Program-made: the position numbers and the translations under genes | Notes under the pieces: model-generated | Databases searched by the model: none | What the model was told of the DNA's origin: nothing | The model's input: the letters and a program-made list of their open reading frames with translations, nothing else | From: Octopus vulgaris | Taxonomy: Eukaryota | Direction: 5' to 3' | NCBI GenBank assembly: GCA_951406725.2 | Contig: OX597816.1 | Span: 112,158,001 to 112,222,000, forward strand | Length of the DNA: 64,000 nt | Shown: piece by piece, positions 3,574 to 60,794 of the stretch | How positions within the stretch are numbered: position 1 is the first letter of the stretch | Layout: each line of letters starts with the position of its first letter

Positions 3574-4446
3574 ACTAGTTTATGTTTAATAAAAAATAAA
3601 TTATTTACCTATGATTTAAATTCATCTCCTTCAAAATAGTCACATTGTGTGGCAATACACTGGTACCAGTGTTCCTACCACTTTTGGAATCAAGCCTGGG
3701 AGTTCATTTTCCATAAGTAAGTCGAAGACCTTCTGCAATTCACTCTGGATCTTGACAACGGTGTAAAAACAGCGACCTTTGAGCTGCATCTTCATTTCAA
3801 GGAAGAGATGGAAGTCTGCAGGTGCTAAATCTAGTGAATAGGATGGGTATGAAAGTGATACTATATTGTTATTGGTGAGAAACTCAAGAGTGAGGAGAAC
3901 TCAGTGACAGGGTGTATTGTTGTCATAAAGAATCCAGTTCTTTGTGCTCCACAGATCTGGTCACTTTTGCCAAATGTACTTCCTCAAATACTTCTAAACA
4001 TTGTAGTAGAACTCTCAAATAATGGCCTGGTCTTGAGGGAACAGATTCTCAATACACAATACCACAGATGTAGTAACAAATGATGAGTATGCTCTTGATT
4101 GAGTTGCAGCTCTGTCATGCCTTTTAAAGCACCCATGCCACTCAAAACTTTGCATTCAACTCATTGCCTTATTGCCATACGCTTGTCGAAGTATGCTCAA
4201 TGTCTTTGTAGCAGACTTCCCAAGTTTAATGCAAAATTTCATGTTGGTTCTTTGTTCCAGCATCCTGTCCATAACAAAAATCACAGACTACAGCAGACAC
4301 ATGATCACAAAATACAAATTTTACAACTTTCAAAGTAAGCATGGCAATGTCACTCAGCACACTGCTACATGAAGGTCACTGCACATGCACCCATGTGCTG
4401 CCATCTGTTGGCATGCTACAAAACCTGTCTAGGAACTTTTTGATAC
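3573..4446 (-). mobile_element. Decayed mariner, same family as 403-1010
   Basis: Reverse-complement similarity to 560-1000 (CCAGATCTGTGGAGCA; HPSYSxDLAPADF region); TIR GTATCAAAAAGTTCCTAGAC at about 4427-4446. Confidence 0.8.
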
Positions 4447-8260: not shown

Positions 8261-8308
<48 letters not shown>

Positions 8309-8334
8309 AAGTAATAAAGTTAATATCTGGTCAT

Positions 8335-8396
8335 AGAGTGACCAATGGTTTCACATCGATGAAGGCTAAAGCCTCGCAGACATCTCATCAGACTCT
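8335..8396 (-). ncRNA. Type-I hammerhead ribozyme motif
   Basis: AGAGT-CTGATGA-[imperfect stem II]-GAAA-CCATTGG-TC-ACTCT; GUC cleavage triplet; stem I perfect. Confidence 0.75.
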
Positions 8397-8415
8397 AGTC
8401 TGAAGTGTTCAGACT

Positions 8416-8480
8416 AGAGTCTGATGAGATGTCTGCAAGGCTATAGCCTTTTGTGGATGAAAAAAACCATTGGTCACTCT
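8416..8480 (+). ncRNA. Type-I hammerhead motif, degenerate (A-run expansion at GAAA)
   Basis: AGAGT-CTGATGA-..-G(A)7-CCATTGG-TC-ACTCT. Confidence 0.6.
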
Positions 8481-8568
8481 GTGACCAGACATTAACTTTA
8501 GTGCTTTAATATTTTACTGCTCTATACTTCAGAGTGTACTTCTTGTGCGGATATATGATACATTGACG

Positions 8569-11233: not shown

Positions 11234-11520
11234 CAGTGCCAACAAAGTCTTTAGACAATTTCAAAAAGTCATTTTAGAAAACTTAGAATAGGTGGCAACT
11301 AAATTTTTGTTGCATATTAATATGTTATCATTAAAGTTTGTTTTTAATGATATTAATAGCTTTATTAATGTTATGTCTTTATGCTTCAGACATCAATTAA
11401 TGTTGTTTTTATGTTTCAGACAACAGCTACTCCACATGAAATGTACAATGTGCCTTGGTTTATCGAAACAAAGCCGGATGTTCAAACACAAAGAAATTAT
11501 ACCATCTGTCATTTCAACTT
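11234..11520 (+). mobile_element. 5' fragment of a Tc1/mariner element (DUF4817-like HTH start)
   Basis: Starts CAGTG; peptide ATPHEMYNVPWFIETKPDVQTQRNY resembles the N-termini of such transposases. Confidence 0.5.
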
Positions 11521-11589
11521 GCCCCAACTAAGTCTATCTGTACTACTTCCACTCAAGTGCAACTACTAACATCAAAAATTCATAAAGTG

Positions 11590-13807
11590 TTCCTTTTTAA
11601 AAAGCTGAGGCTTTATGCAAATAAAATTCAGAAGGCACTTAAAAACTTATCCTCCTTTCTTCAAATACACGGAAAGAGCCTCTCTAAAAATGAAATCGAC
11701 TATTTATTCAATTTTAAATACAGACCTAGTCTTTTCTATGGATTATCTAAAATACACAAAAATCTACATATTTATAAAGCTTGCAAAGTTTCTCCGAGCC
11801 TATGCATTAATATTCCTTCCCTTACTGACCTTAAACTGAGACCCATCATTGCTGGCCCTGCTTGTAAAACCCATCATTTGAGCAACTTCCTCAACATCTT
11901 ACTCAAACCATTTCTAAAATATGTGAAAAGCTTCATCAGGGATGACTTAGACATGCTTAACTACCTCCTGATGACAATTAATGAACGAACTGTTAGTATC
12001 ATTCGATGTGGTGAATTTGTACACCAATATCCCACACAATTATGGTATAGAACCTTCTGGCTAGAAAAATACCCAGAAGAGATCCCAGGACACATCAACC
12101 ACAGATTCATAATTGCAGCACTCAAATTCATCCTACTAAACAACTATTTCACGTGCGATACAGTTTACTATTGACAAAAATGTGGAATTGCAATGGGAAC
12201 CCGAGTTGCTCCAGTGATTGTGAACCTTGGAATGGGTTACCTAAGACTTAAAATATACCAATCATCACTACAAAAATATGGCACCTCATTTCATTGCTAT
12301 TTAAAGGAGAACTGGAAGAGGTATTTGGACGATTGCTTTATACGTTGGAAAGACAGCATGGACAAACTCCTCGATTTCAAAATAATGCTTAACAATATTG
12401 ATAGCAACGTATAATTCACCATGGAGCACAGCAGTAAACAACTCCCTTTTCTTGACATTCTAATTAAAATAGTCAATAACCACATCTAAACAGACATCTT
12501 CTATAAACCCACAGATTCTAAACAATACCTATTATTCAACTCATGCCACCCCAAACACATAAAAATTTATATACCTTATAATCTAGCAAAAAGAATCTGT
12601 ACCATAGTTTTGGACACCTATACTCATGAACAAAGACTCCTCAAAGTCAGATCAATACTAATCAAAAGACATTACCCAATATCATTAATAAATGATGGCA
12701 TTAAATGAGCTAAGAAAATAGATATACGAAAATTAACAGATGTCAACCAAAATACTACACCAGACTTAAAAATACTTCCATACATCTCCACACATAACCC
12801 TAGAAACAATGATGCCTTCAACATTATCCTCCAAAATCTACCCATCTCACAGGAGATAAAACAATGAACAACATTTTAGTCTCACACAAAATTATCAAAA
12901 GCAAAATGCAACCTAAATCATTGAAAAATTTATTAACCAGCACAAGACTATATCTATTAACAATGGAACCAAAAGTGAAAAAATGTGGTCAACTTACTGT
13001 GGTACATGCCCTCACCTTTTGGAGGGTTCAGAATTCCACTTTAGACAAGGTGAAATATTTAAGATTAAATCAAATTTCACCTGTGCTTCGGAAAATCTAA
13101 TCTATGCCATTACATGCCTAGGGTGTGGTAATCATTATATTGGCCAAAGAGAAACTTCACTCTGTCGAAGAACCACTCTCCACAAAGAACAAATCCGCCA
13201 CCCACAAAACAGACAGATTCAGGTCAGTGAACACATAGAAAGATGCGCTAGGAACCTTAACCCTAATTTCCTAATTTTCCCCTTCTATCAGTCCTCACAG
13301 AACACCTCAGTACAACAAAGAATGAATAAAGAGGCAACTTTCATCAATAAATATCTTCCGCAACTCAATATAAACACATAACTTAATACAGAAGACTACT
13401 AATCTTTCAATTAATACCACCCATACATCCCATACACCATTCACAGTACAGATCTATATCTACTCTAATTGCACCAAATCCAGAACTACTTACCTCCCTT
13501 ACACATAATCTTTTTACTCAGGGACTAATAGACCTGACACCGTTCATTAATCGGTGTGCATTCAAAGCAGTGATCGGTAATTTTACGAAACCGGTATGCT
13601 TTTGAATCTCTTTAACAATTCACAATAATGACTGTTATTACTTTTATTCCTACCTCAGTTCATCTAATTGTATATATCTATCGTTACTTTTCATAAAAAG
13701 CCTTTACTGATTTTGATTTCCAATGTGCATTTTCGCTTATTTTTCTTCTTACTTTCCCCTTACATTTCCACGTGTAGTTTCTATTTCTTTTTGTAACACA
13801 TTTCTAT

Positions 13808-14651: not shown

Positions 14652-16130
14652 TATTGAAATGGATAAATGAATTATCTTGTTACGGATTATTCAAATTATA
14701 GCCGATACCTGGGTAGCAAAAATCACAACAGAAAAATCATGGTTGAGGTTACGACCATGGGGTTTCAAAACCGTGCCTTAGTGCGGAAATTTGAAGTTTT
14801 ATATATTTAGTTTTAACAACAGTAGTATCACGGACATTAGCAATCACAGCGTTCTCAGTGGCAGGGAGTATACAGGTGATATTCCATTAAATAGTATTGA
14901 TAATGGGGTGTACAATGTCGAAGACAGCCATAGTTCTTACAATCATCATAGTAATAAGAACGCCGTATTAATATCGGAAGCCAATCCCAATAGAATAAGG
15001 TTCTTATCTAGTAATTCCAAGATTAGAAACGTCATTTACCAATGCAGAGTTTATACTGAATCAGATGTCTACTTGTATATCGGGGCTTCATCATCGTAAT
15101 TGGCCGTCAGAATATCGAATCACTTCACAACGTTTCGCGATTTTGGAAAGCAACACGCGACCGGGCTAAGTAAATTAGTCTGGCGTTTGAAGAACGCGAA
15201 TTCAACCTTTAGACTGGAATGGTCGATTTTATCGGTGTCTGAACCGTTTGATAGAGGCAAAAGAATCTGTAATCTTTGCAACTCGGAACTTTTTCACATT
15301 TTATTCACCCGAGGGCAGCTTGTTAACTCGATTTTGCAAAATTCTTTTAGATGTCCGCACTGGAGGCGGCACACATTTCTTGCATTTCAATGAAGTCTAA
15401 GATAATTAACCCCTTGATGTCCTAAGAAAAGGAAAAAAAATTTTGTAAAAAATTTTGAATTAAATTTGTAAGGGGAAATTACTCCCCTTTTACCGTATGA
15501 ACTGCTACTTATTTAGAAATACTATCAGGGATGTATACTCCCATTGTTGACAAGCCATCTATCTATAAACTGGTCACAGACGAACACACAGACACAGGTT
15601 TTTCTTCAGCTGCTTGACCATTAATAGCTGCTATATATTTCTCCCTAGCAGCTTCCTAAACATACTGCCACACATACATAGGTGCACACACACATACATG
15701 TAGGCAATTTCTCACACCCAAACATGATAGCCCTCATTCTTAAAACAATTCGAATATTAACACTAGTCATACAGAATATATTCACACTCTTTGGTTTTCT
15801 GTAATTCTTCCCCTCCCCTATGTTAACCGGATTTTGACCTCGAATTATCTCAACGGACATTTTCGTCGGCTTACACCCAGCCCGACGTCAATGCATTTTG
15901 AGAGACAGTTTTGTGCCATTCATACCATGGGCTCCTAGAGAGCATTTGTCGAAAAGCTTGCTGTGCATTTTGTTGGAGATTTAAGTTCCTGGATTTTCCT
16001 GAAGAGAAAGCTGCAAAATGGTCTCCTTATTCAATCCGAATTAGGGACTTTGCAGCCTTTGAAACATATGTAGAAAATAATAAAAAGGAATTTTGTAGAA
16101 TCTTCGTTCAGCTCCATTTCTTTCCTCACT
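14652..16130 (+). mobile_element. Penelope-like element 3' part (second lineage) with inverted 5' tail, in (TA)n
   Basis: GIY-YIG: NVIYQCRV..YIGAS..RISNHFTTFR..LSKLVWRLK..CNLCNSE..CPH (14791-15393, one in-frame stop); HHR at 15993-16078. Confidence 0.85.
15993..16078 (+). ncRNA. Type-I hammerhead ribozyme motif, canonical core, long stem II
   Basis: ATTTTC-CTGAAGA-GAAAGCTGCAAA..TTTGCAGCCTTT-GAAA-CATATG-TA-GAAAAT. Confidence 0.85.
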
Positions 16131-16136
16131 AAATAT

Positions 16137-16170
<34 letters not shown>

Positions 16171-16934
16171 CATCATCATATATATATATATATATACCCT
16201 TTGAATCAACAGCACATGGAATTAATGACTCCACACTATCCATCTGTAATAAAATATGATCAACTATCGGACTTTACATACCATGGACGAGAAGCCTTCC
16301 TACCCATTCTACACAGCCCTTGGTTGATATTAGGAAGGGCTTCCCACTGTAGAAATCATGCCAAGGCTAACACCAAGGTTCAGCACAACCTTGCAGATCG
16401 CAAGATTCTTTGAAAACTTCTAGTCCATACAACTGGATATTAAATAAAAATTATAATACAGATCCTTCACTTCTCCCCAAAACCGATATTTTCCATATTT
16501 AACTCATTCCCTATCTCCAATCATCTGTCACGCCATTATCGACTCAATGGCACTTAGCTAGCCATGTACCTTTTGTGTTCCTTTATCCTAATCTGTAAAG
16601 AATACAGTAATATCCTCTACAGTAATACTCCTGTTTCAATCCTTCTATTATACTTTAGCATCTCAACATTAATTACAAAGCCACCCCACTCAGTATTGCA
16701 CCCCTATTCTGTCAAGAGAATTGCATTGTGAATTACTCATTGACCATATTAGTGCTGATGCAACAAGAAAAGCATCCAGTACACTCTATAAAGTAGTTGG
16801 TACAGGAAGAGAATTCAGTCTGAGAAACTATATCAAAGCGGAATTTGGAGTTCAACACAGTCTTCTGACTTGTCAACTTTTGTTGAACCATCCAGGCAAT
16901 GGCCAATATATGTCTGTATAGAATACAGACATAT

Positions 16935-17012
<78 letters not shown>

Positions 17013-17042
17013 TATGTGTATTATGTATGTATTTCATGTTTG

Positions 17043-17129
17043 GGCATATGGTTAAGAGTGCGGGCTACTAACCCCATGATATCGAGATCGATTCCAGGCA
17101 GTGACCTGAGTAATAATAAAATAATAATG

Positions 17130-17175
<46 letters not shown>

Positions 17176-17335
17176 CAACAAAATCAAAAAATACCTTAGG
17201 AATGAGAACCCAGGTGCAAAATTTCTCCCCCAAGACACCTGATGAAGGCTGGAGGTTATATCAGCCAAAACGTGTTAAGAACAAACAAGATGAGGACAAA
17301 TATCAGTCAAATGTAAATAATGTAAATAATGTATA
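17043..17335 (+). mobile_element. tRNA-headed SINE-like element carrying a degenerate hammerhead
   Basis: TGGTTAAGAGTGCGGGCTACTAACCCC..GAGATCGATTCC head, (AAT)n, then ACAC-CTGATGA-AGGCTGG..TCAGCC-AAAAC-GTGT; second tail fragment at 60346-60411 (-). Confidence 0.65.
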
Positions 17336-17398
17336 TTTCATGTTGTTTACATTCTGTAATGTTCTGTGCCCATATAGGCATATGCATGTATATATGCA

Positions 17399-17459
<61 letters not shown>

Positions 17460-17543
17460 GTATATATATATGAATATGTATATGTATATGTATATATATA
17501 TATGTAATAGATGAACATCAATGGAATTTGTATCTTTGTGGAC

Positions 17544-17987
17544 CAGTGCCGGTGGCACACAAGAAAATCATCCGAACGTGGCCGTAGCCAGTACCGCATA
17601 GACTGGCCTCCGTGCTTTGGGGACGTAACAAACACCATCCGATCGTGGCCGTCCGCCAGCCTCATCTGGCACCTGTGTCGGTGGCACATAAAAACAACAT
17701 CCGAGCGTGGCCGTCTGCCAGCCTCGTCTGGCACCTGTGTCGGTGGCACATAAAAACACCATCCGAGCGTGGCCGTTCGCCAGCCTCGTCTGGCACCTGT
17801 GTCGGTGGCACATAAAATCACCCACTACACTCTCGGAGTGGTTGGCGTTAGGAAGGGCATCCAGCTGTAGAAACACTGCCAGATCTGACTGGCCTGGTGC
17901 AGCCTTCGGGCTCCCCAGACCCCAGTTGAACCGTCCAACCCATGCTAGCATGGAAAACGGACGCTAAATGATGATGATGATGATGAT
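17544..17987 (+). mobile_element. V-domain SINE-like element with internal 62-bp tandem array
   Basis: Units start at 17633, 17695 and 17757; GGTTGGCGTTAGGAAGGGCATCCAGCTGTAGAAAC; tail CATGCTAGCATGGAAAACGGACGCTAAA(TGA)n. Confidence 0.8.
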
Positions 17988-18388
17988 GTATGTATGTATG
18001 TATGTATGTATATTATTTATATTATTATATGACTGAACACCACACATCTATTTCCAACTAAGTTTTTATCTATCTATCTATATATATATATATAGCTAAA
18101 AAAACTTTTTTGGCTGCTATTTCTAATGAGTTCAGTATGTGGCAAAGTAATTTATTTTACTAAGCTCTTTTATATAATATATATATATATACATACATAC
18201 ATAATTAAGGATAAAATCATTATAAAGATGTTATCAAATGGCCAGCAGGAACAAAAAAAAAAACATATAGGTAACAATTAATACTAATATATAATTATAC
18301 AGATAGAATTATAGTAGAGTGCTGATAAACAACTGCAACATACTAGAGATAGACATCAAATGGTACTAAAAACCACATCTTGCCATAT

Positions 18389-18810
18389 AGGCACAGGCGT
18401 GGCTCTGTAGTAAGAAGTTTCCTTCCCAACTGCATTGTTCCAGGTATAGTCTTACTGCAAGGGGCCTTGGGCAAGTCTCTTCTACTATAGTCTTGGGCTG
18501 ATGAAAGCTTTGCAATTGGATTTGGAAGACAGAAACTAAACTGAAAGAAATCAATAGAATGTGTGTGTGTGTGTGTGCATGCGTGAGTATGTGTGTGTGT
18601 ATGAGTCTTTGCATTCCTTACCATTGCTTGTCAGCTGGTGTTGGTTTATTTGCATCCCTGTAACTTTACAGTTTGGTAAAAGGGACCAATAGAATTAGAA
18701 ATAAGTTTTAAAATTATTAGTACTGGGGTCAATTCATTCAACTAAAAATTGTCGAGTCGGTGCTCCAGCATGGCTACAGCCTAATGACTGAAAAAAGTAA
18801 AAGGATAAGA
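18389..18810 (+). mobile_element. Degenerate CORE-type SINE (left arm; mirror copy 23620-24000)
   Basis: Head, CCTTGGGCAAGT and tail GGTGCTCCAGCATGGCTACAG. Confidence 0.8.
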
Positions 18811-19085
18811 GAAGGTGTGTGTTTGTGTGTGTATATGTGTGTGTGTGTATGTGTGTTGTTATTGTTGTTGTTGTTGTCATAAGCATTTATAAACTTTTAA
18901 GAGAATATGAAATAATTTGTTTTTGGAATGTTGGATCTTGAAGCAGAAAAGCTATAAATAATAATATATAAATATTGTCTTAAAATTTATTTACAAGGAA
19001 AAACCTGAAGGCTACCCTTGGAACTCAAGCCCATATCTCTAGTAAACACGACAATATTTACATGTCATTATTTATAGCTTATCAA

Positions 19086-19300
19086 GGTGGCAAGCAGGTA
19101 GAATTGTTAGCTTGCCTCTGAGCGTTTTGTTTGGCATTTCCTCCATCTTTAAATTCTGAGTTCAAATTGCACTGGTGACAACTTCCCCTTTCATCGTTTA
19201 GCGGTTGATAAATTAAGTCCCACTTGAGCACCCAGGTCGAGATAATCTACTAGGCCTCTCCCATGAAATTTCAGGCCTGGTGCCTATAGTAGAAAGAATT
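19086..19300 (+). mobile_element. Meta-domain SINE (left arm; mirror copy 23062-23278)
   Basis: TTCTGAGTTCAAATT..CCTTTCATC..GATAAATTAAGT..GCCTGGTGCCTATAGTAGAAAG. Confidence 0.75.
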
Positions 19301-19663
19301 ATTTAAATGCTTTTCTCGTTCAAGATTCATCAGTCAATAAAAAAAAATAGAAGAATTATCTCATATTCTCTTGAAGTTTATGAATTCTTATGATGTGAAC
19401 ACACAATTCTCACTGGTAATAATAATGTTTCTAAAATAAATAGAGAAACTGTAAGGATTGCTTTGATCCAATGGCTGAATGCCAGCTATATTTAAAGGGA
19501 TTCAAGACCCATGAGCAGCCTTTGACATTTTCTATCAAAGGTATTTTTAAGCCAATATTTACATGCAATTATTTATAGCTTATCTGCTCCAAATCCAATA
19601 CTCCAAAAAATAATATGCATGTGTGTTTATCTATATATCTCATACCTCCTGAATTTCTTTATA

Positions 19664-19708
<45 letters not shown>

Positions 19709-19759
19709 GTATATATACACACACACAGAAAAAGAAAATATATATATATGTATAAAATA

Positions 19760-20758
19760 ACAAAATGGGAGGAGAATTTTGATTATTCCTGCACAGTGAG
19801 ATGTAATGCAAAAACAAAATGTAACACCACACCTCATCTCAAAACACTACTGTTTATATCAACTCACAGCCCTAGACACAATGAGGCATACAACACTATT
19901 GTATAAAATCTACTTATGCTTCTTAAGGATCTAAAATTGAAGAACATTCTGAAAACATAAATTTAGCAAATGCAAAAAGCAACACAGATTGCTAAATAGA
20001 CTTCTGAAAAATGTAAAGCATTACATAAAAACCATGAAACCAGCAGTTACAAGATGTGGACGACAAAATCTGAGGAACATGCCCCCAACCTACTGGAAGA
20101 CTCAGAATTCCTGTTCAAAGAAGGAGGGAGGTTCACAATTAAAACCAAATTCACTTGTGCTTCCAAGAATCTAATTTATGTTATAACCTGTTCAGATTGT
20201 GAACATAACTATATAGGACAGACAAGTATGACACTGAGATAGAGAACCACACTACATAAGGAACAGATCTGGTTCTTGCAATACAGACAGATTCCTTTGA
20301 GTATCTACCAGTGCAAAGAAACAGTTTCTGTACAATAAAGTTTAAATAGAGACAATTTGTTCATTGGAAAATACAGAATAGTCTAAATATGAATGCATAA
20401 CCAACTTTGGTCTCAGTATATATTTTAATTCATGATCACATACTCATAATTGTACATATTTAATCTCACTACTTTAGTTTTAGTGTTTTTGTATTTATAT
20501 TTATCCCATCTCCAAAAGATGAGTAATTACCTCCCCCAGTTCCCAATAATAATGATCACCAATTACCACCCCTTAAATTTTTATACATGTTGAATCATTC
20601 ATTCACAAACATCTCTGCACAAAACATCTTCTTAAGATAATAAGAAATTACAATAATTTCAATGCCATGATTAGCAAAAGCAAAACTGGTCGACAGACAT
20701 AATACTCTTTCACTTATAAAATATATTAAAACTATGTAAACTATTTGCATTTTCCCTC

Positions 20759-20760
<2 letters not shown>
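19760..20760 (+). mobile_element. PLE 3' fragment (GIY-YIG plus pLTR), Neptune/Naiad-type
   Basis: FTIKTKFTCASKNLIYVITCSDCEHNYIGQTSMTLR, homologous to ORF 12983-13381. Confidence 0.85.
20663..20695 (+). ncRNA. Degenerate minimal hammerhead motif (core ATGATTA)
   Basis: TGCC-ATGATTA-GC(AAAA)GC-AAAA-CTGG-TC-GACA, at the same position in the PLE as the 13560 motif. Confidence 0.5.
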
Positions 20761-20804
<44 letters not shown>

Positions 20805-20808
<4 letters not shown>

Positions 20809-21107
20809 AATTGTAGCATGGAAAATGCTTTTAAGCCATTTAAAAACACACAAAAACCATCAGATTTACTTTAACATCTAAAATTAATTTGTGTCAAAAT
20901 GTTTTCGTCCCTTTGAAACCACGACCTGTTCACTGACAAAATTTCATGCCACAAGACGTTTTGTCAGTTCATGCCACCAGAAGTTTCGTTGCAATTTCAA
21001 AGCAACGAAAATAATTTGACACAAATTAAATTTATATGTTGAAGTGAATTTAGCAGTTTTTTGTGTTCTTAAATAGCTTATAAACATCTTCCATGTGGCA
21101 ATTGTTT
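20805..21107. mobile_element. Fold-back element with variant HHR motif in left arm
   Basis: About 110-bp imperfect inverted arms (AAACAATTG..CAATTGTTT), flanked by TA tracts. Confidence 0.75.
20892..20938 (-). ncRNA. Hammerhead-like motif with G3:C8 core and one extra nucleotide
   Basis: TGTCA-GTGAACA-G-GTC..GAC-GAAA-ACAT-TT-TGACA. Confidence 0.55.
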
Positions 21108-21111
21108 ATAT

Positions 21112-21345
21112 ACGTATATATTAGTATATTAGTATATAATATACTAATATATAATTATATAGATATAATTATGGTAAGGAATGCTGATAAACAACACCAA
21201 CATGATAGAGATGGATGCAAAATGGTGATAAAAACATCTTGGCATTATTTGATGTCTATCTATAGCATATTAGTGTTGTTTGTCAGCACCCTTTACTATA
21301 AATATATCTATATAATTATATATTAATATATATACTACTAATATA
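21112..21345. repeat. Second imperfect palindrome in the spacer; homologous to 18280-18380
   Basis: TATAATTATATAGATAT..GCTGATAAACAACAC vs GTGTTGTTTGTCAGCAC..ATATCTATATAATTATA. Confidence 0.75.
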
Positions 21346-21459
21346 GGATAAAATTATTTTTCAGAAAAATTTTCATCAAAAGTGGGAGAATATTAAAATA
21401 CCTTTAAAGGTTAAAATTATAAACAAGGGCAAAAGAAAAATTATTTATAAGTTATTAAT

Positions 21460-21494
<35 letters not shown>

Positions 21495-21499
<5 letters not shown>

Positions 21500-22575
21500 C
21501 AAGAAGGAATATGCACATAGTTTACATAGTTTTAATATATTTTTTTATATATTTTATAAGTGAAAGTGCATTAAGTTTGTTGGCCAGTTTCACTTTCACT
21601 CATCATGACATTAAAATTATTGTAATTTTGTATTTCATTAAGAAGATTTTAGTCCATGTTTTGCATGGAGACGTTTGTGAACAAATGATTCAACAAATAG
21701 AAAAATCTAATGGGAGGTAATTTGCAATCGTTATAATTGGGGACAGGTGAAGTAATTACTCATCTTTCAGAGAGGAGATAAATGTATATATACGAAAGCT
21801 CAAAATCTCAAGTAGTGAGATGAAATATGTACAATGATGGGTATGTGTTCATGAATTAAAATATATAGAGTGACCAAAGTTGGTTATGCATTCATATTTA
21901 GATGTGTTCTGCATTTTTCAATGAACAAATTTTCTCTGTAGAAATGTTCCTGTACAGAAATTGTTTCTTTGCACTAGTAGATGAGAAAAATTGTGAAATT
22001 TGGGTGGATATTACTTGCAAATCTCTCTATGGGTTGACTCAAAGGGACCCATCTGTATTGCAAGAACCAGATCTGTTCCTTATGTAGTGTGGTTCTCCAT
22101 CGCAGTGTCATACTTGTATTTCCTATATAATCATGTCCACAACCTGAACAGGCTATTACATAAATTAGATTCTTGGAAGCACAAGTGAATTTGGTTTTAA
22201 TTGTGAACATCGCTCCTTCTTTGAACAGGAATTCTAAGTCTTCCAGTAGGTTGGGGCATGTTTCTCAGATTTTGTCGTCCACATCTTTTAACTATTGGTT
22301 TTGTGGTTGTTCTGCAAAGCTTTGCATTTTTTTAGAAGTCTGTTTAGCAATTCATGTTGCTTTTTGCATTTGCTGAGTTTATGTGTTTTCAGAATGTTGT
22401 TCATTTTTAGATCCCTGTGAAGCATAGGTAGATTTTATACAATAGTGTTGTATGCCTCATTGTGTCTAGGGCTGTGAGTTGATATAAACAGTAGTGTTTT
22501 GAGATGAGGTGTGGTGTTACATTTTGCTTTTACATTACATCTCACCATGTGTGGATAATTGAAATTCTCCTCATC
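21495..22575 (-). mobile_element. PLE 3' fragment, mirror copy of 19760-20760
   Basis: ORF 21974-22210 FTIKTKFTCASKNLIYVIACSGCGHDYIG..LHKEQI; HHR remnant at 21578-21610. Confidence 0.85.
21578..21610 (-). ncRNA. Degenerate minimal hammerhead motif (core ATGATGA)
   Basis: TGTC-ATGATGA-GT(GAAA)GT-GAAA-CTGG-CC-AACA. Confidence 0.5.
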
Positions 22576-22623
22576 CCTATATATATATATATATATTATC
22601 TCCCTCTCAGTCTCTCTCCCTCT

Positions 22624-22673
<50 letters not shown>

Positions 22674-23494
22674 AAAATCAAGATGTATGATATATATAGA
22701 TAAACACACATATTCTTTTTTGGGATTATTAGATTTTGGAGCAGATAAGCTATAAATAATTGCATGTAAATATTGGCTTAAAAATACTTTTAATAGAAAA
22801 TGTCAAAGGCTGCTCATGGGACTTAAACTCCTGTAAATGTGGCTGGTATTCAACCATTGGATCAAAGCAATCCTTCAAATTTCTCTATTTATTTTAGAAA
22901 CATTATTATTACCAGAGAGAATTGTATGTTTGCATCATAAGAATTAATAAACTACAAGAGAATATGAGATAATTCTTTCGTGTTTATTTTAATTTCTTTC
23001 TTTCTTTATTTATTTTTTTGATTGATGGATCTTGAAGGAGAAGGAGAAAAGCATTTAAATAATCCTTTCTACAATAGGCACCAAGCCTGAAATTTTATGG
23101 AAGAGGGCTAGTCGATTATCTCGACCCAGGTGCTCAAGCAGAACTTAATTTATCAACCACAAAAAGATGAAAGGGGAAGTTGATACTAGTGAAATTTGAA
23201 CTCAAAATTTAAAGATGGAGGAAATGCCAAACAAAACGCTCAGAGGCAAGCTAACAATTCTACCTGCTTGCCACCTTGATAAGCTATAAATAATGACATG
23301 TAAATATTGTCATGTTTACCAGAGATATGGGCTTGAGTTCCAAGGGTAACCTTCAGGTTTTTCCATCTAAATAGATTTTCAAAGAATATTTATATGTTAT
23401 TATTTATAGCTTTTCTGCTTCAAGATCCAACATTCCAAAAATGAATTATTTCATATTCCCTTGAAAGTTTATAAATACTTATGATGTCAACAAG

Positions 23495-23536
<42 letters not shown>

Positions 23537-24092
23537 AAACACACACACACACACACACACATACACAAACACACACACACACACACACACATACACAAAC
23601 ATACACACACACCCTCACCCTCTCTTATCTTTTTACTTTTTTCAGTCATGCTAGGGCACTGACTTGATGAATTTTAGTTGAATGAATCAACCACAGTACT
23701 TATACTTTTAAAGCCTGTTTCTTATTCTATTGGTCTCTTTTGCCAAACTGCTAGGTTACGGGAATGCAAATAAACCAACACCAATTCACAAGTACTGATA
23801 AGGAACAAACACAGACCCAAAGTCATGCACACATATTCCATTAGTTTCTTTCAGTTTCCCTCTTCCAAATCCAATCACTAGGCTTTGGGCAGCCCAAGGC
23901 TATACTAGAAGACACTTGCCCAAGGTGCCTTGCAATGGGACTGAACCTAGAAGAATGCATTTGGAAAGGAAACTTCTTACTACAGAGCCACGCCTGTGCC
24001 TATATGGCTGTGGTTGCATATGTATAGTCATACTATTACCTGTATATCCACACCTGTACCTATAAATAATTATATATATATATATATATATA

Positions 24093-24229
24093 TACCGGAG
24101 TAAACACATAAATGTGAAACAAGGTGGAAAAAAGAGTACTCAAATACTCAAAGTAGAGTAATATGCTTTATTTAAAGCAGCAGAAAATTCAACAAAACCT
24201 ATTACTCTGAGTTTCTCGTTGCCGTTCAT
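24093..24229 (-). mobile_element. Short pLTR-like fragment beginning inside a truncated hammerhead
   Basis: Minus strand ATGA-ACG(GCAA)CGA-GAAA-CTCAGAG-TA; same stem III as 10867; flanked by TA tracts. Confidence 0.5.
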
Positions 24230-24433
24230 ATATACATACACATACACCCACACTTCATTTTTGTATTTGGTTTGCAAGATTCTTTATGCAAATTCACGTG
24301 TTGCAATACATTTTTTATAGTGTAGAAACACAACACAATATATATGTGGTGCAGAGAGCAAATATAATATATATATGTTTGTGTGTGTGTGTGTGTGTGT
24401 GTATACATATTATGTATATATATGTATATATAT

Positions 24434-24472
<39 letters not shown>

Positions 24473-24510
24473 ATATATATATGTTACATATATATATATA
24501 TTGTGTTGTA

Positions 24511-25723
24511 TTATGTTGGCAAGAAAGTAATGTCGGTTTTATGAGTGTGAAAAAAATTATTCTTTTTCATACAAAGAATGAACTTTACTCAATTATATAT
24601 TTTCCATTTTGTTCGATGACCTTTTGTTATTTTTCAGGCAACTTCATGATTCCCCACTCATAGAACTTCTGCTACTTATCAATCAAAAACTGAAGCAAGT
24701 GCAATTTCAGGTCGTCATTATTATTGAAAATTTTACCATTCAATGAATTTTGCTAACTTCAAAATAGATAGTGATCTGATGGTGCAAAGTCAAGGCTATA
24801 TGGTAGATGTGACATCACTTTCTTACCAAGCACCAATAATTTTTCTTTGATTACTTCCTCCAGTTTCATTAGTTGTTGACAGTAAACATCTGAATTGATC
24901 GTTTGGTTCCTTGGAAGGAGTTCACAATATACAGCACTTTTGTAATCACCAAATTGTCAGCATGGCCTTTTTTTATGTAATTCTGCTTTTGATGTTGTTT
25001 GTGCTGGTTCATTACGCTTGAACCATGATCGTTTTCGATTGATGTTATTGTAGACAATCCATTTTTCATCACAAGTGATGATTCTTTTAAAAAAGAGGTC
25101 GATTTCATCGCGTTTGAGGTGCATATCACAAATATTGATTCGTTGTGTTAAGTGAATTGCTTTCAATTTATGTGGAACCTAAATATCAAGCGTCTTAACA
25201 AGTCCAAGACATTCAAGTGATTTTCAGTTGTTGTGTGTGATACCCTTAACCTCTCTGCAATCTCGTGCACAGTTATATGACAATCAGATTCAATTATGGC
25301 TTTGATTCAGTCATCATCAACTTCAGTATGTGACCAGAACGTTGGTCATCATTGAGTGTAAAATCTCCAAAATGGAATTTTTAAAACCATTTCTGACATG
25401 TGCATTCTGTAAAGTAATCAACACCATAAACCTCACATATCTCTTTGTGAGTCTCAGCAGCTTTCTTGCCTTTACAGAAATAAAAGAGCAAAATATGGCA
25501 AAATCTTCAATTTTGCACTCCATGTTAAAATTGACACTGAAATCACAGCTGTAAACAAAATTACGTGCAATTTGCTTCTAAAGTAAGCTAAACGTAATGG
25601 CTATCAAAAATTTGCTTCTAAAGTATGTCAAAAGGAAAAAATCATAACGTTGACAAAATTCATTTTAAAAAAGCGTAACTCTATATATTTGCAAAAAGCA
25701 AAATTACTTTCTTACCAACCCAA
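24511..25723 (-). mobile_element. Near full-length decayed mariner with both TIRs and TA target duplication
   Basis: TIRs TTATGTTGGCAAGAAAGTAAT and ATTACTTTCTTACCAACCCAA; MECKIE.. start, ITCDEKWIVYNN, PYSLDFAPSDHYLF. Confidence 0.92.
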
Positions 25724-36340: not shown

Positions 36341-39150
36341 ACATACAAGCAATTCGAAACAAAAATATATCACATACAGAAATTTTACACACATCAAAAA
36401 CGAAAACAACCATAGATACTCACACACACACAACAATCTGAGGCAACAATACCACCGTTCCCCGGAACCAATATCACACAATCTCACAGACAACTCATAC
36501 AAACAAAATTGCACCCAACATTTTTTAGCCCGGGACCAGAGACACCAGGACACAGGCTGGAACCTAGTAATAACGAAAAACCGAAGATAATCAACCTTTC
36601 AGCCAAACCTCTCTCTAACATAAAAATTGACATCCTCTCAAAAGGACTCAAATTTACGCCAACTCCACGCAGAGCCAACCAAAATGAAGTCAAGGACAAT
36701 ATAACAGCATTATGCAGAAAATTAAGACTGGCAGAAGCATCAACCAGTTTCAATACTGAAGATGACTCACTAGTCAAAAACAAAAGTGAACACATCCCCC
36801 ACAGAGGAAGAAATAAAGATCTTGACGAGTTCTGCAGCCACATTGAGAACTTTCCCTACCATACTATACATAAACAGACAGTTAACTCAAATTTTAGCAC
36901 TGCACAGTGCAAGGAACTGATAGAACTTCAAAATGATGAAGATATAACCATTAAGGAAGCAGACAAAGGAAGTGCAATTGTAATAATGGATACTTTATAC
37001 TATAGAAATCTTGTAATTTCCTTGCTTGATGGCAATCAACATTATGAAAAAATCACCAACTACACCCCGCAAAAAATAATGAAAACTCCGTCCTCACTAA
37101 TTAAAACCCATGAAAAGGAACTGACAACCAAAGAGATCGACTGTCTAACAAACTTTAAATGCAAGCCTAGCCTCTTCTATGGTCTGCCAAAAATACACAA
37201 AAGCCAAATTATAAATGAAACCATTAAAAAATCACCAAAGACATACATACACACACCTAACCCGGGGGACCTAAAACTACGACCCATTGTAGCTGGCCCA
37301 CCTGTGAAACACACAGATTAAGTCTATTTATGGACATCTTTCTGAAACCCTTCCTTAAACACATCGATAGTCATATCAGAGATGACTTGGATATGTTAAA
37401 CCACCTTCCAAAAAAAGTCAAGGAAGAAACAATCATGGTTTCATTTGATGTAGTTAATTTATATACCAGTATACCTCATAATTATGGACTAGAGGAAATA
37501 CAGTTCTGGCTGGACCAATTTCCGGAAGAAATACCAAAAAGGATCAGTAAAGAATTCATTACTAAATCAATTGAATTCATCCTACAAAATAACCACTTCA
37601 TGTTTGACAATACGTTTTACCGTCAAAAATCCGGAATTGCTATGGGTACAAGGGCAGCACCAGTCATTGCGAACCTAACAATGGGCTACCTGGAAATAAT
37701 TATTTACCAGGAAACTTTATCGACCTTTGGAAACCCCCCTTTCTCAATACATAAAAGAGAATTGGAAAAGATTCCTGGACGATTGTTTTATACTCTGGAA
37801 TGAAAACACAGATAAACTCCTAAAATTCAAAAACCTATTGAACAGCATCAACCCAAATATACAGTTCACAATGGAGTACAACCAAAAGGAGCTTCCATTC
37901 TCAGATATACAGATTAAAAAAATTAACCTAAAAAGAGAAACACATTTTTTACAAAGCCACAGACGCCAAACAATACCTACTTTTCGATTCATGCCACCCA
38001 AGACACACTGAAACAAACATCACTTTCAACCTTGCAAGAAGGATATGCACAATAGTGTCAGAACAAAATACCAGGAACTTTAGACTACAAGAACTCAAAA
38101 ACACCCTAATTGACAGACACTACCCAGTTCAACTCATAGAGGATGGGATCAGGCGTGCAACAGAAATCGACATAGAAACTTTGAGAAAAGTTCAACACAG
38201 CAACACGCCTTCCCCGAAAATACTGTCTTACATATCCACATACAACCCCAGAAACAAAGAAGCCTTCACCATCATCCACCCAGAATTTACCAATACTTCA
38301 TAAGGACCCCAAATTAAAGGAAATTCTAAACATACACAAAATCATTAAAAGCTACAAACAACCTAAATCACTTAAAACGATTCTCACAAGGGCAAAATTG
38401 TTTTCTGAAATTACGGATGCAAAAGTAAAAAAATGTGGTAGACCAAACTGCGCAACATGCCCAAACCTTCTAGAAGGATCAGAATTCCTTTTCAAAGAGG
38501 GACAAAAATTCAAGATCAGATCTAATTTTAATTGTGCTTCTGAAAACACAATTTATGTCATAAGATGCTCGGGCTGCCACCAAAATTACGTAGAGTCCAC
38601 GGGATTATCACTTAGACGCATATGCACTCTGCATCGACAACAGATTGCATTCCCAGAATACAGAATGATACCCTTTAGTGAGCATATTGAGAAATGCGCA
38701 AAGCAACTACTACCACAATTTTTAATCTTTCCATTCTATCAATGTGCTATTGGAACACCAAATTAGATTAAACAAGGAAACATTCTTCATTGAAAAATAT
38801 AAGCCTGAACTTAACCATCCTAACATCCTTATACAGAGAAACTCATCTCATTAAAAAAGGGGAAAAGAAATATAAAGCGATTATCTCCCTTATACCGGAA
38901 GAAATCCCTTATTACCTCACTTGCCTGGAACTTTTCTTTGCACTTCATAACAAAAACATGACACGATGTAGGTAAAGACATTTGAGTAATTTGAAAAGTT
39001 AACACGAAACCGGTAGTTTCTCCAGAAACTATGTTACTATTTGCAAAATTTTATAACATTTTTCTAACATAACGACTTAAATATATTCTTTAACCTTATA
39101 ACACAAGCCTTCTGTAGTTTTTTTCACTCTTTTCTATTTTCTATATATAC
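36340..39150 (+). mobile_element. Nearly full-length, frameshifted Penelope-like element (Neptune/Naiad-type) in (TA)n
   Basis: IINLS..LSKGLKFTPTP, ITIKEADKGSAIVIMD, FYGLPKIHK, VSFDVVNLYTSIPH, GIAMGT, RFLDDCF, CGRPNCATC, IYVIRCSGC; HHR at 38984. Confidence 0.95.
38984..39022 (+). ncRNA. Minimal hammerhead motif with U3:A8 core
   Basis: GAGTAAT-TTGAAAA-GT(TAAC)AC-GAAA-CCGG-TA-GTTTCTC. Confidence 0.65.
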
Positions 39151-39210
39151 AAAGACGTGCTTTCACACACAACTTTCTCACCTATATATACATATATATA
39201 TTTATATATA

Positions 39211-39770
39211 CCCAAGAAAAAAGTAACAAGAATGGATCAGTAGTTTAGTACAATTGTTTCATACTAAGAACATTTTATTTAAAGCTGCAAAGAGATGTGA
39301 ACTGAACCGGTGTGTGAACAACATCTTTCCTCATGTCTCCTGGAATTTATATTTGCATCTTTATGGATGGACCTACCTTCTCTGAGAAGTTATTAATCTT
39401 TTTAAAAAATTTTTAAAAACTGTGCATTGTTGGAAAACATATAGAGTCTGCTTATAAACTTACTTCAAATTCATAGAACTCACTCCTTATACTTCATAAG
39501 GATATTTACACTCTCTAGGGTGTTTGGAAAACATATATATGATTTAGCTGATGAATACTTGACATTATATTTGCTGTAATAATTGCAGCTTTAAATAAAA
39601 TGTTCTGAGTATGAAACAATTGTACTAAACTACTGATCCATTCTTGTTACTTTTTTCTTAGTTATAATCACCCCACATATTTTTATGGTTAATACCATAA
39701 AGAATTCTGGTGCATCTACTATATTCATTTCAATTCATTTGAATTCATTTGAATCTTAATTGTTTTGGTG
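39211..39770 (+). mobile_element. Non-coding pLTR-type element with a 77-bp inverted 5' copy
   Basis: 39214-39290 is the reverse complement of 39583-39659 (one mismatch); flanked by TA tracts; contains an HHR. Confidence 0.8.
39543..39629 (+). ncRNA. Type-I hammerhead ribozyme motif, canonical core
   Basis: TTTAG-CTGATGA-ATACT..AGTAT-GAAA-CAATTG-TA-CTAAA. Confidence 0.88.
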
Positions 39771-40204: not shown

Positions 40205-40246
40205 TTATATATATATATTTATATATATATATATATATATGTATAA

Positions 40247-40631
40247 AAGGGACATTAGCCAACTGAATATGGCTAGGGACAGGGCAGGGTGGTGGGGGTG
40301 TCACTGTTGCATTTAGCCCCAGGCGAACATCAACGTCACCAGATAGGCCGACGCCATCACGGCGTCCTCTATCTTGCAAAGGGAGATCATTCCCCAAGAA
40401 GCGGATGCCACACACGGACCTAGGTTTCAAGGTGTATTGCCTATTATCAACGTCTGGTAGGCACCGCTTCTCGACGAACGACTCACCGTGCAAGATATAT
40501 ATAAAGATTTTCAAGTAATGATGGCGTCGGCCTATCTGGTGACGTTGATGTTCGCCTGGGGCTAAATGCAACAGTGACACCCCCACCACCCTGCCCTGTC
40601 CCTAGCCATATTCAGTTGGCTAATGTCCCTT
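40247..40631. mobile_element. Young MITE/fold-back element with 113-bp perfect inverted arms
   Basis: 40247-40359 is the reverse complement of 40519-40631; 159-bp spacer; TA-rich flanks. Confidence 0.85.
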
Positions 40632-40763
40632 ATATTATGGAGCAGTCACTGTCTATATCTCATTTAGAGAATTATTATTGCTATATATATGTATTTATAT
40701 ATTTATTTATATATATGTATTTATATATTTATTTATATATATGTATTTATATATCTATTTATA

Positions 40764-45199: not shown

Positions 45200-46043
45200 A
45201 TACAGTATATATATAATTAAAATCACAATAAGGGTGAAAAAAATTGAATATTAATTAATAACATCAATTTAAAACACCAAGTGGCCCAGCGTAAAAAAAC
45301 TGTGATACAGTAAAAATTATTAATACAAGTAATAAGAGAGAGACCACATGTGGTCCTAAGAGTGAGGATATTTGAACGAAGTGGAGAGGGAAGGGTACGT
45401 TGATTGAAAGAATGTTCAAAGGCTAAGGAAAGAATTTCGTTATTGAAGTGGAGTGCACGTTAAGCTAATTGTTCAAACCACGGTGACTATCGTGGTTTGA
45501 ACAATTAGCTTAACGTGCACTCCACTTCAATAGCGAAATTCTTTCCTTAGCCTTTGAACATTCTTTCAATCAACGTACCCTTTCCTCTCCACGTGTTCCC
45601 TACCTATTATTCCTTTAACCCTTCTCTTCCTACTATCTATATTTGACGTCAATTCTTCTAACGGTTTTTTTTAAAAACACTCGTTATCGTTTTGTTTACC
45701 ATGTAGGCAGTCATCGAAATTTTTGTTTGTCTTGTTGTCTAGAGAGGCTCCCTTTCTTTCCTGATGAGAAGATTGCATAATGCACCCTTTATTCCTTTGG
45801 AATGAAACCATGTTGTCTTCGAAACATATGTCGAGAGTAAAGGAATTTTGTTAACATCTTCGTTCGACTCCATTCTTTCATTTATTCATATACAACACAC
45901 AAATTTCTGCACATGAACCCGAGTTTCTACCCTTGGACAGGTCGCTTCAACCGTGTTTCTGACGTGAATTTGCTACCCTGGTTTCGGTTCAACGAATTTT
46001 CCATGCTGACGATAAACATAGGATAATTCATTCACCTATTTAA

Positions 46044-60345: not shown

Positions 60346-60794
60346 TCTATATTTAAGAGATGAGGAATTATGTACATTATTTACATTTGATGGATATTTG
60401 TCCTCGTCTTGTCCTCATCATCTGCATGGGATGGAGTACATGCAGTTCTTGGTTATATTCTCTTCTATTGGTGGTTTTATTCAAAGGAGATATTTGTGAG
60501 GTGTTGTATTTGTAGAAGCAAATGAAATTTGTAGAAGCAAATTTCCTACAGCCAGATGTGTTTTGTGTTGCCAACCTACACCTATTCATAAGTAAAGTAA
60601 TATTTCCCCATGGCCAGACATGTTTTCACAGAAGAGTGGAAATGATGGACACTGGATGCATGATAGTGGGTCTTGTTTACTACTATCACAGTAAGTCAAA
60701 GCCTAGAAACAGTAATACACACACACACACACACACATACACACACTAGCGCCCACATATGCACACGCACACACACACACACACATTTCATTGT

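Follow-up and report, generated by a model that had tools for sequence, protein, structure and literature searches.

An abundant octopus repeat family carries a hammerhead-type motif with a G3:C8 pair and probably represents a Penelope-like 3' end

A hammerhead-type motif with G3:C8 in place of the canonical C3:G8 pair lies on the minus strand (20938-20892) of the fold-back element 20805..21107 in Octopus vulgaris. The surrounding window, by which we mean the whole 64,000-nucleotide stretch of contig OX597816.1 that was analysed, is AT-rich, microsatellite-rich and holds many dispersed repeats. G3:C8 is the majority state of a large repeat family and not a quirk of one copy. The active hammerhead fold was defined by the C3:G8 contact, for which the C3G/G8C swap serves as the classic rescue control. 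The family is likely a natural version of this swap, which has been described so far from laboratory mutants. From the sequence, we consider it probable that the arm family is the 3' end (pseudo-LTR) of a Penelope-like retroelement, or of a non-autonomous derivative, whose hammerhead works in the master.

The initial annotation had read a 5-bp stem I, G3:C8, A9 and an extra purine from the minus strand, and we confirmed these letters at the following positions:

20892..20938, minus strand: minimal type I hammerhead motif, given with hammerhead numbering and the letters of this copy
20934-38 and 20892-96, minus strand: stem I, 5 pairs, UGUCA/UGACA
20933-20927, minus strand: 5' core from G3 to A9, reading GUGAACA (G3 at 20933, C8 at 20928, A9 at 20927)
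20932-20930, minus strand: U4, G5 and A6, present
20926, minus strand: extra G between 9 and 10.1
20925-21 and 20911-07, minus strand: stem II, 3 pairs in this copy, GUC...GAC
20925 with 20907, minus strand: G10.1-C11.1 pair (G at 20925, C at 20907)
20906-20903, minus strand: G12 to A15.1, GAAA
20903-20898, minus strand: palindrome position (A15.1 to U16.1), ACAU and UU reading around it in this copy
20898 and 20897, minus strand: U16.1 and U17, with the predicted cut between 20897 and 20896

Compared with the family, two stem II pairs are missing from this copy, replaced by a G-G mismatch and a wobble, and its stem III palindrome is broken, as it is in both arms of the fold-back. The 55-nt motif stretch folded no better than its shuffles (z +0.45), and Rfam gave no hammerhead match up to E=10 over 15000-25000. 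Since Rfam was also blank at the canonical hammerhead pair of 8300-8520, its silence at the G3:C8 motif says little. The genomic copy at 20892-20938 is likely inactive, judging from the stem II mismatch and wobble, the broken palindrome and the arm-on-arm folding of a read-through transcript; in a folding model, such a fold of the fold-back transcript would block the hammerhead in this copy.

The hammerhead descriptor was run on 500 block-shuffled 64-kb windows. At the grade of the single copy it returned 98 matches when any Watson-Crick 3:8 pair was allowed, 11 of them G3:C8 (7 and 1, respectively, in a smaller set of 40 shuffled windows). Taken alone, the motif of this copy is weak and only modestly unusual, and these counts, along with the missing folding signal, speak for a chance match in AT-rich repeat DNA. 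Such a match was also our first reading, with the GAAA buried in a hairpin of the right arm, and it was dropped since that hairpin needs the locus-specific DNA of the centre.

Contigs of four public DNA runs from four studies (X1-X4, chosen from the five runs containing part of the stretch, with nine runs listed) were mapped on the element at 80% likeness, and differences were recorded from 5%. The mapped contigs numbered 2,926, 1,910, 2,178 and 2,706 in X1-X4. In all four runs the family majority departs from this copy at four motif positions. The change at 20910 (92-94% of the depth in the four runs) turns the G-G mismatch into G-C, the one at 20921 (87-96%) turns the U-G wobble into C-G, and together they complete a 5-pair stem II, GUCGC/GCGAC. 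The change at 20901 (97-99%) gives the palindrome AAUAUU from A15.1 to U16.1, and the one at 20917 (87-90%) lies in loop II. Three of the four majority differences improve the hammerhead fit, at exactly the positions that the model predicts. The annotated hammerhead-type motif with G3:C8 is upheld by this, also as the state of most of the family. The majority letters are column-wise, and no individual copy was seen to combine them all.

The core was covered about 19,000 (X1) and 11,000 (X2) times as deeply as locus-specific contigs; these rough ratios are not a copy number and show only that the sequence is very abundant. The arms belong to a very abundant repeat family, of which this copy is a decayed member. 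In the 5' core the depth amounted to 0.45-1.17 times the maximum of the shared 3' tail. The query has thus not singled out a minority with G3:C8, and the G3:C8 words are about as common as the arm family itself. No other letter at or above 5% was listed for 20922-20945, a stretch that includes G3 and C8 along with the other 5' core positions. This absence is not a test of selection, because of the 5% threshold, the seeding by the query, and the CpGs at 20920-23, which are likewise free of listed decay.

Loop II at 20915 has minority letters at 15-20% and 4-7%, and apart from these all notable minority variants of the motif are of the CpG type. The variants within stem II and at G12 are CpG-type decay, with G12 to A in 5-10%, C11.1 in 10-18%, G11.3 in 6-7% and 11.4 in 5-7% of the depth, and 20907 (C11.1) also has a small G>C share. 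Decay at G12 and in stem II over 5-18% of the depth is what neutral copies would show. Loose ends at 20892 (22 contigs in X2 and 34 in X4) suggest a variant without two bases behind stem I, which would extend this stem from 5 to 7 pairs. Those at 20895 (27 in X1, 21 in X2) suggest a change of A1.3 to G with a wobble kept. One X4 contig has C at position 3 and U at position 8.

The majority form has U4, G5, A6 and A9 as well as G12, A13, A14, A15.1-U16.1 and H17, and it adds the extra base between 9 and 10.1, G10.1-C11.1, 5-pair stems I and II and the palindrome. The published C3:G8 (or U3:A8) is replaced by G3:C8 both in this copy and in the majority. As far as the letters tell, the majority form departs from the listed marks of Penelope minimal hammerheads only in which bases make up the 3:8 pair and in having G as extra base. 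G3:C8 keeps a Watson-Crick pair which should work like C3:G8, and lies outside the published descriptor. At the family-majority grade (stems of 5+5 pairs plus the palindrome) there was 1 match in the 500 shuffled windows, and the analytic chance is about 1e-10 per position. Given this rarity and the improved fit at the predicted positions, we assign a chance match the slightest probability of all readings.

The fold-back and its surroundings are organised as follows:

20761..20804, no strand: (TA)n tract, likely insertion target
20805..21107, no strand: two copies of a single repeat end, arranged head-to-head as a palindrome, 303 bp
20805..20955, minus strand: left arm, the longer copy, with about 15 nt of leader, the hammerhead motif and a 92-nt 3' tail (inner end approximate)
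20956..20994 (start approximate, from 20951), no strand: locus-specific centre, likely templated junction DNA
20995..21107, plus strand: right arm, 5'-truncated, starting in loop II, with the 3' half of the motif and no 5' core

The fold-back is real, as had been annotated: 88 of the 109 aligned bases of the arms are identical (81%), and the folding energy is -121 kcal/mol (z -14.2, 0 of 100 shuffles as good). The two arms share their terminal base (AAACAATTG / CAATTGTTT), next to which lies (TA)n. The right arm was correctly said to keep the 3' half of the motif, as CGAAAATAATTTGACAC at 21006-21022 with GAAA at 21007-10, and its equivalent cut site is 21016|21017. The centre carries a 25-nt-period copy of adjacent sequence (18/22 identical) together with the beginning of the right arm in inverted orientation, namely the 3' strand of the arm's stem II plus GAAA; it is this inverted piece that creates the right-arm hairpin. 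Its depth at 20973-20983 was 42, 12, 0 and 22 in X1-X4, whereas the arms reached 1e5-1e6. Contigs of X1 (20920-21034, 0 differences) and X2 (20920-21045, 2 differences) span the centre, so the locus is no product of misassembly.

A fold-back DNA transposon (MITE) with long terminal inverted repeats would explain arms that share their end base, sit in TA repeats and are 81% alike. The 'hammerhead' would then be a sub-terminal DNA hairpin with a core likeness by chance; a simple hairpin accounts for stems I and II, and in the right arm an 8-pair hairpin buries the GAAA. Terminal inverted repeats are present. However, an internal region common to the copies is absent, as the centre stands at single-locus depth and other palindromic copies have different centres and right-arm starts (among 15 of 40 joints listed). 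Some long contigs carry a single arm in otherwise unmatched DNA (among 32 of 10,015 pieces listed). The right-arm hairpin depends on the locus-specific centre, and even when the hairpin with its 8x10 inner loop is granted, the chance of the loop fitting the core is about 2e-7. We therefore regard a MITE as very unlikely. Since the centre is unique to the locus, an inverted, 5'-truncated Penelope-type end is the likelier source, and the palindrome is likely made of two inverted Penelope-type 3' ends, a longer copy and its inverted 5'-truncated partner. An inverted 5'-truncated copy beside a longer one, in a microsatellite, is indeed what is found at 20805..21107. As regards a target-site duplication of fixed length, which a MITE should have, the flanks on both sides consist of TA repeats, and no empty site was seen.

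Within the 64-kb window we found no other copies of the arm family. The arm showed no similarity to the three Penelope 3' ends of the window (best E 0.054), nor did the flanking inverted Penelope fragments at 19769-20758 and 21503-22572 to the fold-back. In metagenome and viral contigs, exact core patterns matched at 52 loci (18 bases) and 5 loci (17 bases); none of these 57 has the remainder of the element, and all are chance matches. Of four element motifs, one, TTGACACAAATT, is absent from the Naiad/Chlamys/Hydra consensus supplement and the other three occur there only in unrelated contexts. The idea that the family is the missing Naiad hammerhead (Naiad having a (TA)n bias and no canonical motif) was not supported, as the short motifs had no fitting context in the available part of the PMC8557442 supplement, where line breaks can hide matches.

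On the 5' side of the family, loose ends lose agreement about 13 nt past 20943 (among 24 of 779 listed), and no linked ORF was found. Several consensus lines of the loose ends at 20941-20943 (minus strand) give a pyrimidine run, AG, and ATG about 20 nt before stem I. This pattern resembles a splice acceptor at the 5' boundary of the family, with an agreement of only about 0.5. A splice acceptor at the 5' boundary has been described for the Penelope element of Drosophila virilis. The fold-back itself sits in the unique 740-bp centre of an old inverted duplication (18878-20758 / 21503-23483, about 2 kb, 81-87% identity), which includes a Penelope GIY-YIG fragment. Further fold-backs lie at 21120-21345 (with a relative at 18281-18386), 39207-39666, 40243-40635 and 45381-45592, and descriptor scans found no hammerhead in them. 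Two inverted decayed copies at 404-989 and 3610-4223 (72%) presumably resemble a mariner transposase.

A second G3:C8 motif lies outside the fold-back and serves as a comparison:

13564..13602, plus strand: second minimal hammerhead motif with G3:C8

It has a 6-pair stem I, GUGAUC, G for A9, a 3-pair stem II, GAAA and the palindrome ACCGGU. The motif starts 183 nt behind the stop of a broken Penelope-type ORF (remains at 11440-13381) with an RT and a GIY-YIG-like end (E 0.0075, below the Pfam cut-off). Behind a related ORF (57% identity over 95 aa), in the 3' tail of a Penelope fragment, there is a decayed motif with A3...U8 at 20663-20695 (plus strand), possibly an A3:U8 variant. Its 3:8 state is uncertain because the inverted twin at about 21578-21610 (minus strand) reads A3...G8. 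Both the 13564 and the 20663 motifs are single copies. One relative has a C-X4-C-XX-C linker, which is suggestive of the Neptune type.

These data change part of the initial annotation, which had called the fold-back unrelated and its motif independent. The palindrome most likely consists of inverted Penelope-type 3' ends, the same class as the carrier of the other motif. Since both G3:C8 motifs probably belong to one element class, the two swaps may share one ancestor. The claim of a second, non-homologous family with the same swap stands in so far as 13564-13602 has G3:C8 and no detectable sequence similarity to 20892-20938; against it, there is one copy here and it has G for A9. The annotated covariation is putative, the variants within stem II and at G12 being CpG-type decay.

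The window holds further hammerhead-type motifs. At 8307-8509 lies a second head-to-head palindrome of this kind; its two type I hammerheads have the canonical C3:G8 pair and a real stem III, their cores are at 8391 (minus) and 8421 (plus), and the palindrome is centred just 5' of stem I and adjoins a (TG)n tract. The extra purine had been likened to one at 17246; there it is an A that belongs to the canonical C3:G8 motif at 17239, in which A stands in place of G12. A SINE-like element at 17040-17335 (plus strand) has a tRNA-like head (A/B-box-like motifs, by eye), (TAA)n and a canonical minimal hammerhead with A at G12, and its 3' tail recurs at 60367-60412. In a third Penelope copy (ORF remains 36416-38830), the tail at 38960-39015 (plus strand) keeps CGAAACCGGTA and the 5' core is unreadable.

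If the family derives from a Penelope element, its motif could still be a hammerhead fossil, in which the amplified master no longer cuts and G3 and C8 arose by drift. A dead motif could be amplified because, in the available part of PMC11167929, cleavage was not needed for insertion in vitro; there, too, the laboratory double mutant was only partly active, and the genomic copies here decay at G12 and stem II. However, a fossil needs two transversions which by luck are compensatory, with every other core position, the three helices and the palindrome preserved in the family majority, and the same pair occurs in the second motif at 13564-13602. We consider a fossil unlikely and prefer a Penelope-type end whose master hammerhead works.

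In such an element the master RNA would cut itself after U17, as predicted from the motif. Cutting would take place as a dimer, with the two palindromes pairing into stem III according to the accepted model for Penelope minimal hammerheads, and it would probably be slow and helped by proteins. G3:C8 would preserve the tertiary 3:8 pair and thereby place the 2'-OH of C8 where that of G8 normally sits, as in the laboratory C3G/G8C rescue. Reverse transcription would start about 90 nt behind the cut site and copy into (TA)n targets, and a second, 5'-truncated copy would be inserted in inverse orientation. The arm end lies 92 nt behind the predicted cut, which is consistent with reverse transcription starting downstream of the hammerhead, as described in the part of PMC11167929 at hand.

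Four of the eight distinct forward joints start the second arm at most 4 bases from the equivalent cut site, counted where the intervening letters are known, among 12 of 38 rows listed and with one backward joint excluded. Against a flat spread over 60-85 bases this clustering has p 0.006-0.02, a post hoc value with ranges chosen by us. Short shared letters and the two-base variant also pile joints near the cut site. The clustering may be a weak hint of cleavage in vivo. A wider reading, which is possible though on balance doubtful, is a Penelope lineage with working flipped purine-3:pyrimidine-8 hammerheads (G3:C8 here and at 13564, perhaps A3:U8 at 20663). It would have on the order of ten thousand copies, cut in vivo and be invisible to CUGAnGA descriptors. 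If this is true, some Penelope families reported without hammerheads may carry flipped ones.

A naturally fixed swap with the other marks intact would confirm by evolution that the pair matters and not the base of G8, and the G3:C8 family is a ready substrate for testing the role of the 3:8 pair. Our literature search over freely accessible papers and preprint texts found no natural G3:C8, only laboratory mutants. Lunse et al. in 2017 reportedly described about 150,000 Penelope-linked variants, which may bear on the novelty of G3:C8. The accessible parts of PMC6155905, PMC6765202 and the retrozyme preprint (bioRxiv 10.64898/2026.07.22.740005) hold nothing on it. According to its available part, PMC8557442 used cuganga strings as its hammerhead search, and standard descriptor searches of this kind miss whole high-copy families. 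Missed families bear on the question whether Penelope elements depend on their hammerhead. Two points limit the importance: natural U3:A8 covariation has already been published, and cleavage by the G3:C8 family is a prediction.

Minimal type I hammerheads of metazoan Penelope-like elements were described by Cervera and de la Pena (2014, PMC4209133), and our comparison refers to the available portion of that paper. It gives four extra Penelope marks, including the base between 9 and 10.1, G10.1-C11.1 and the palindrome 15.2-16.2. In its alignment U17 is common and the UUU triplet occurs, e.g. in the oyster row. Motif pairs lie on opposite strands 100-700 bp apart, and two motifs pair by their palindromes into stem III and cut slowly. 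The octopus family shares the short stem I, U4-G5-A6, A9, the extra base, G10.1-C11.1 and GAAA. The palindromic 15.1-16.1 in place of a stable stem III, U17, the U-rich 5' and AU-rich 3' flanks and the occurrence mostly solo or as opposite-strand pairs are shared as well. It differs in G3:C8, where that paper has C3:G8 and U3:A8 only, and in the extra base, which is G here and A, C or U in the published consensus. In the part of its supplement that is available, there was no core among the GUGA matches listed.

Penelope insertions are described by Craig et al. (2021, PMC8557442), the accessible part of which names inverted 5'-truncated copies and microsatellite targets as Penelope traits, with a (TA)n bias in the Neptune and Naiad clades. 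The fold-back resembles them in its inverted truncated copy beside a longer one, its microsatellite target and the common 3' end. In contrast to these insertions, the arm family has no attached ORF, and the short motifs tried were unmatched in the available consensus supplement. Non-LTR retrozymes (bioRxiv 10.64898/2026.07.22.740005, as far as its text is available) are likewise short non-coding Penelope-derived units with a type I hammerhead. They form head-to-tail tandem arrays by definition, whereas the octopus element is head-to-head, with one whole and one incomplete motif and no further copy in the window.

Natural U3:A8 hammerheads are known from the accessible parts of PMC3088659 (Perreault et al. 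2011) and, as the Cercyon element of S. mansoni, of PMC4209133. Like them, the arm family shows a compensatory natural change at the same tertiary pair. U3:A8, however, takes two transitions and keeps pyrimidine-3:purine-8, while the arm family takes two transversions and flips the pair. In the laboratory, C3G/G8C partly rescues a Penelope hammerhead in vitro (the Poseidon element of the anole, in the available part of PMC11167929), and such rescue mutants are also reported in PMC3884650 and in the accessible part of the review PMC8495972. These mutants have the same G3:C8 core by engineering, whereas the arm family, abundant in the genome, has it as its majority state.
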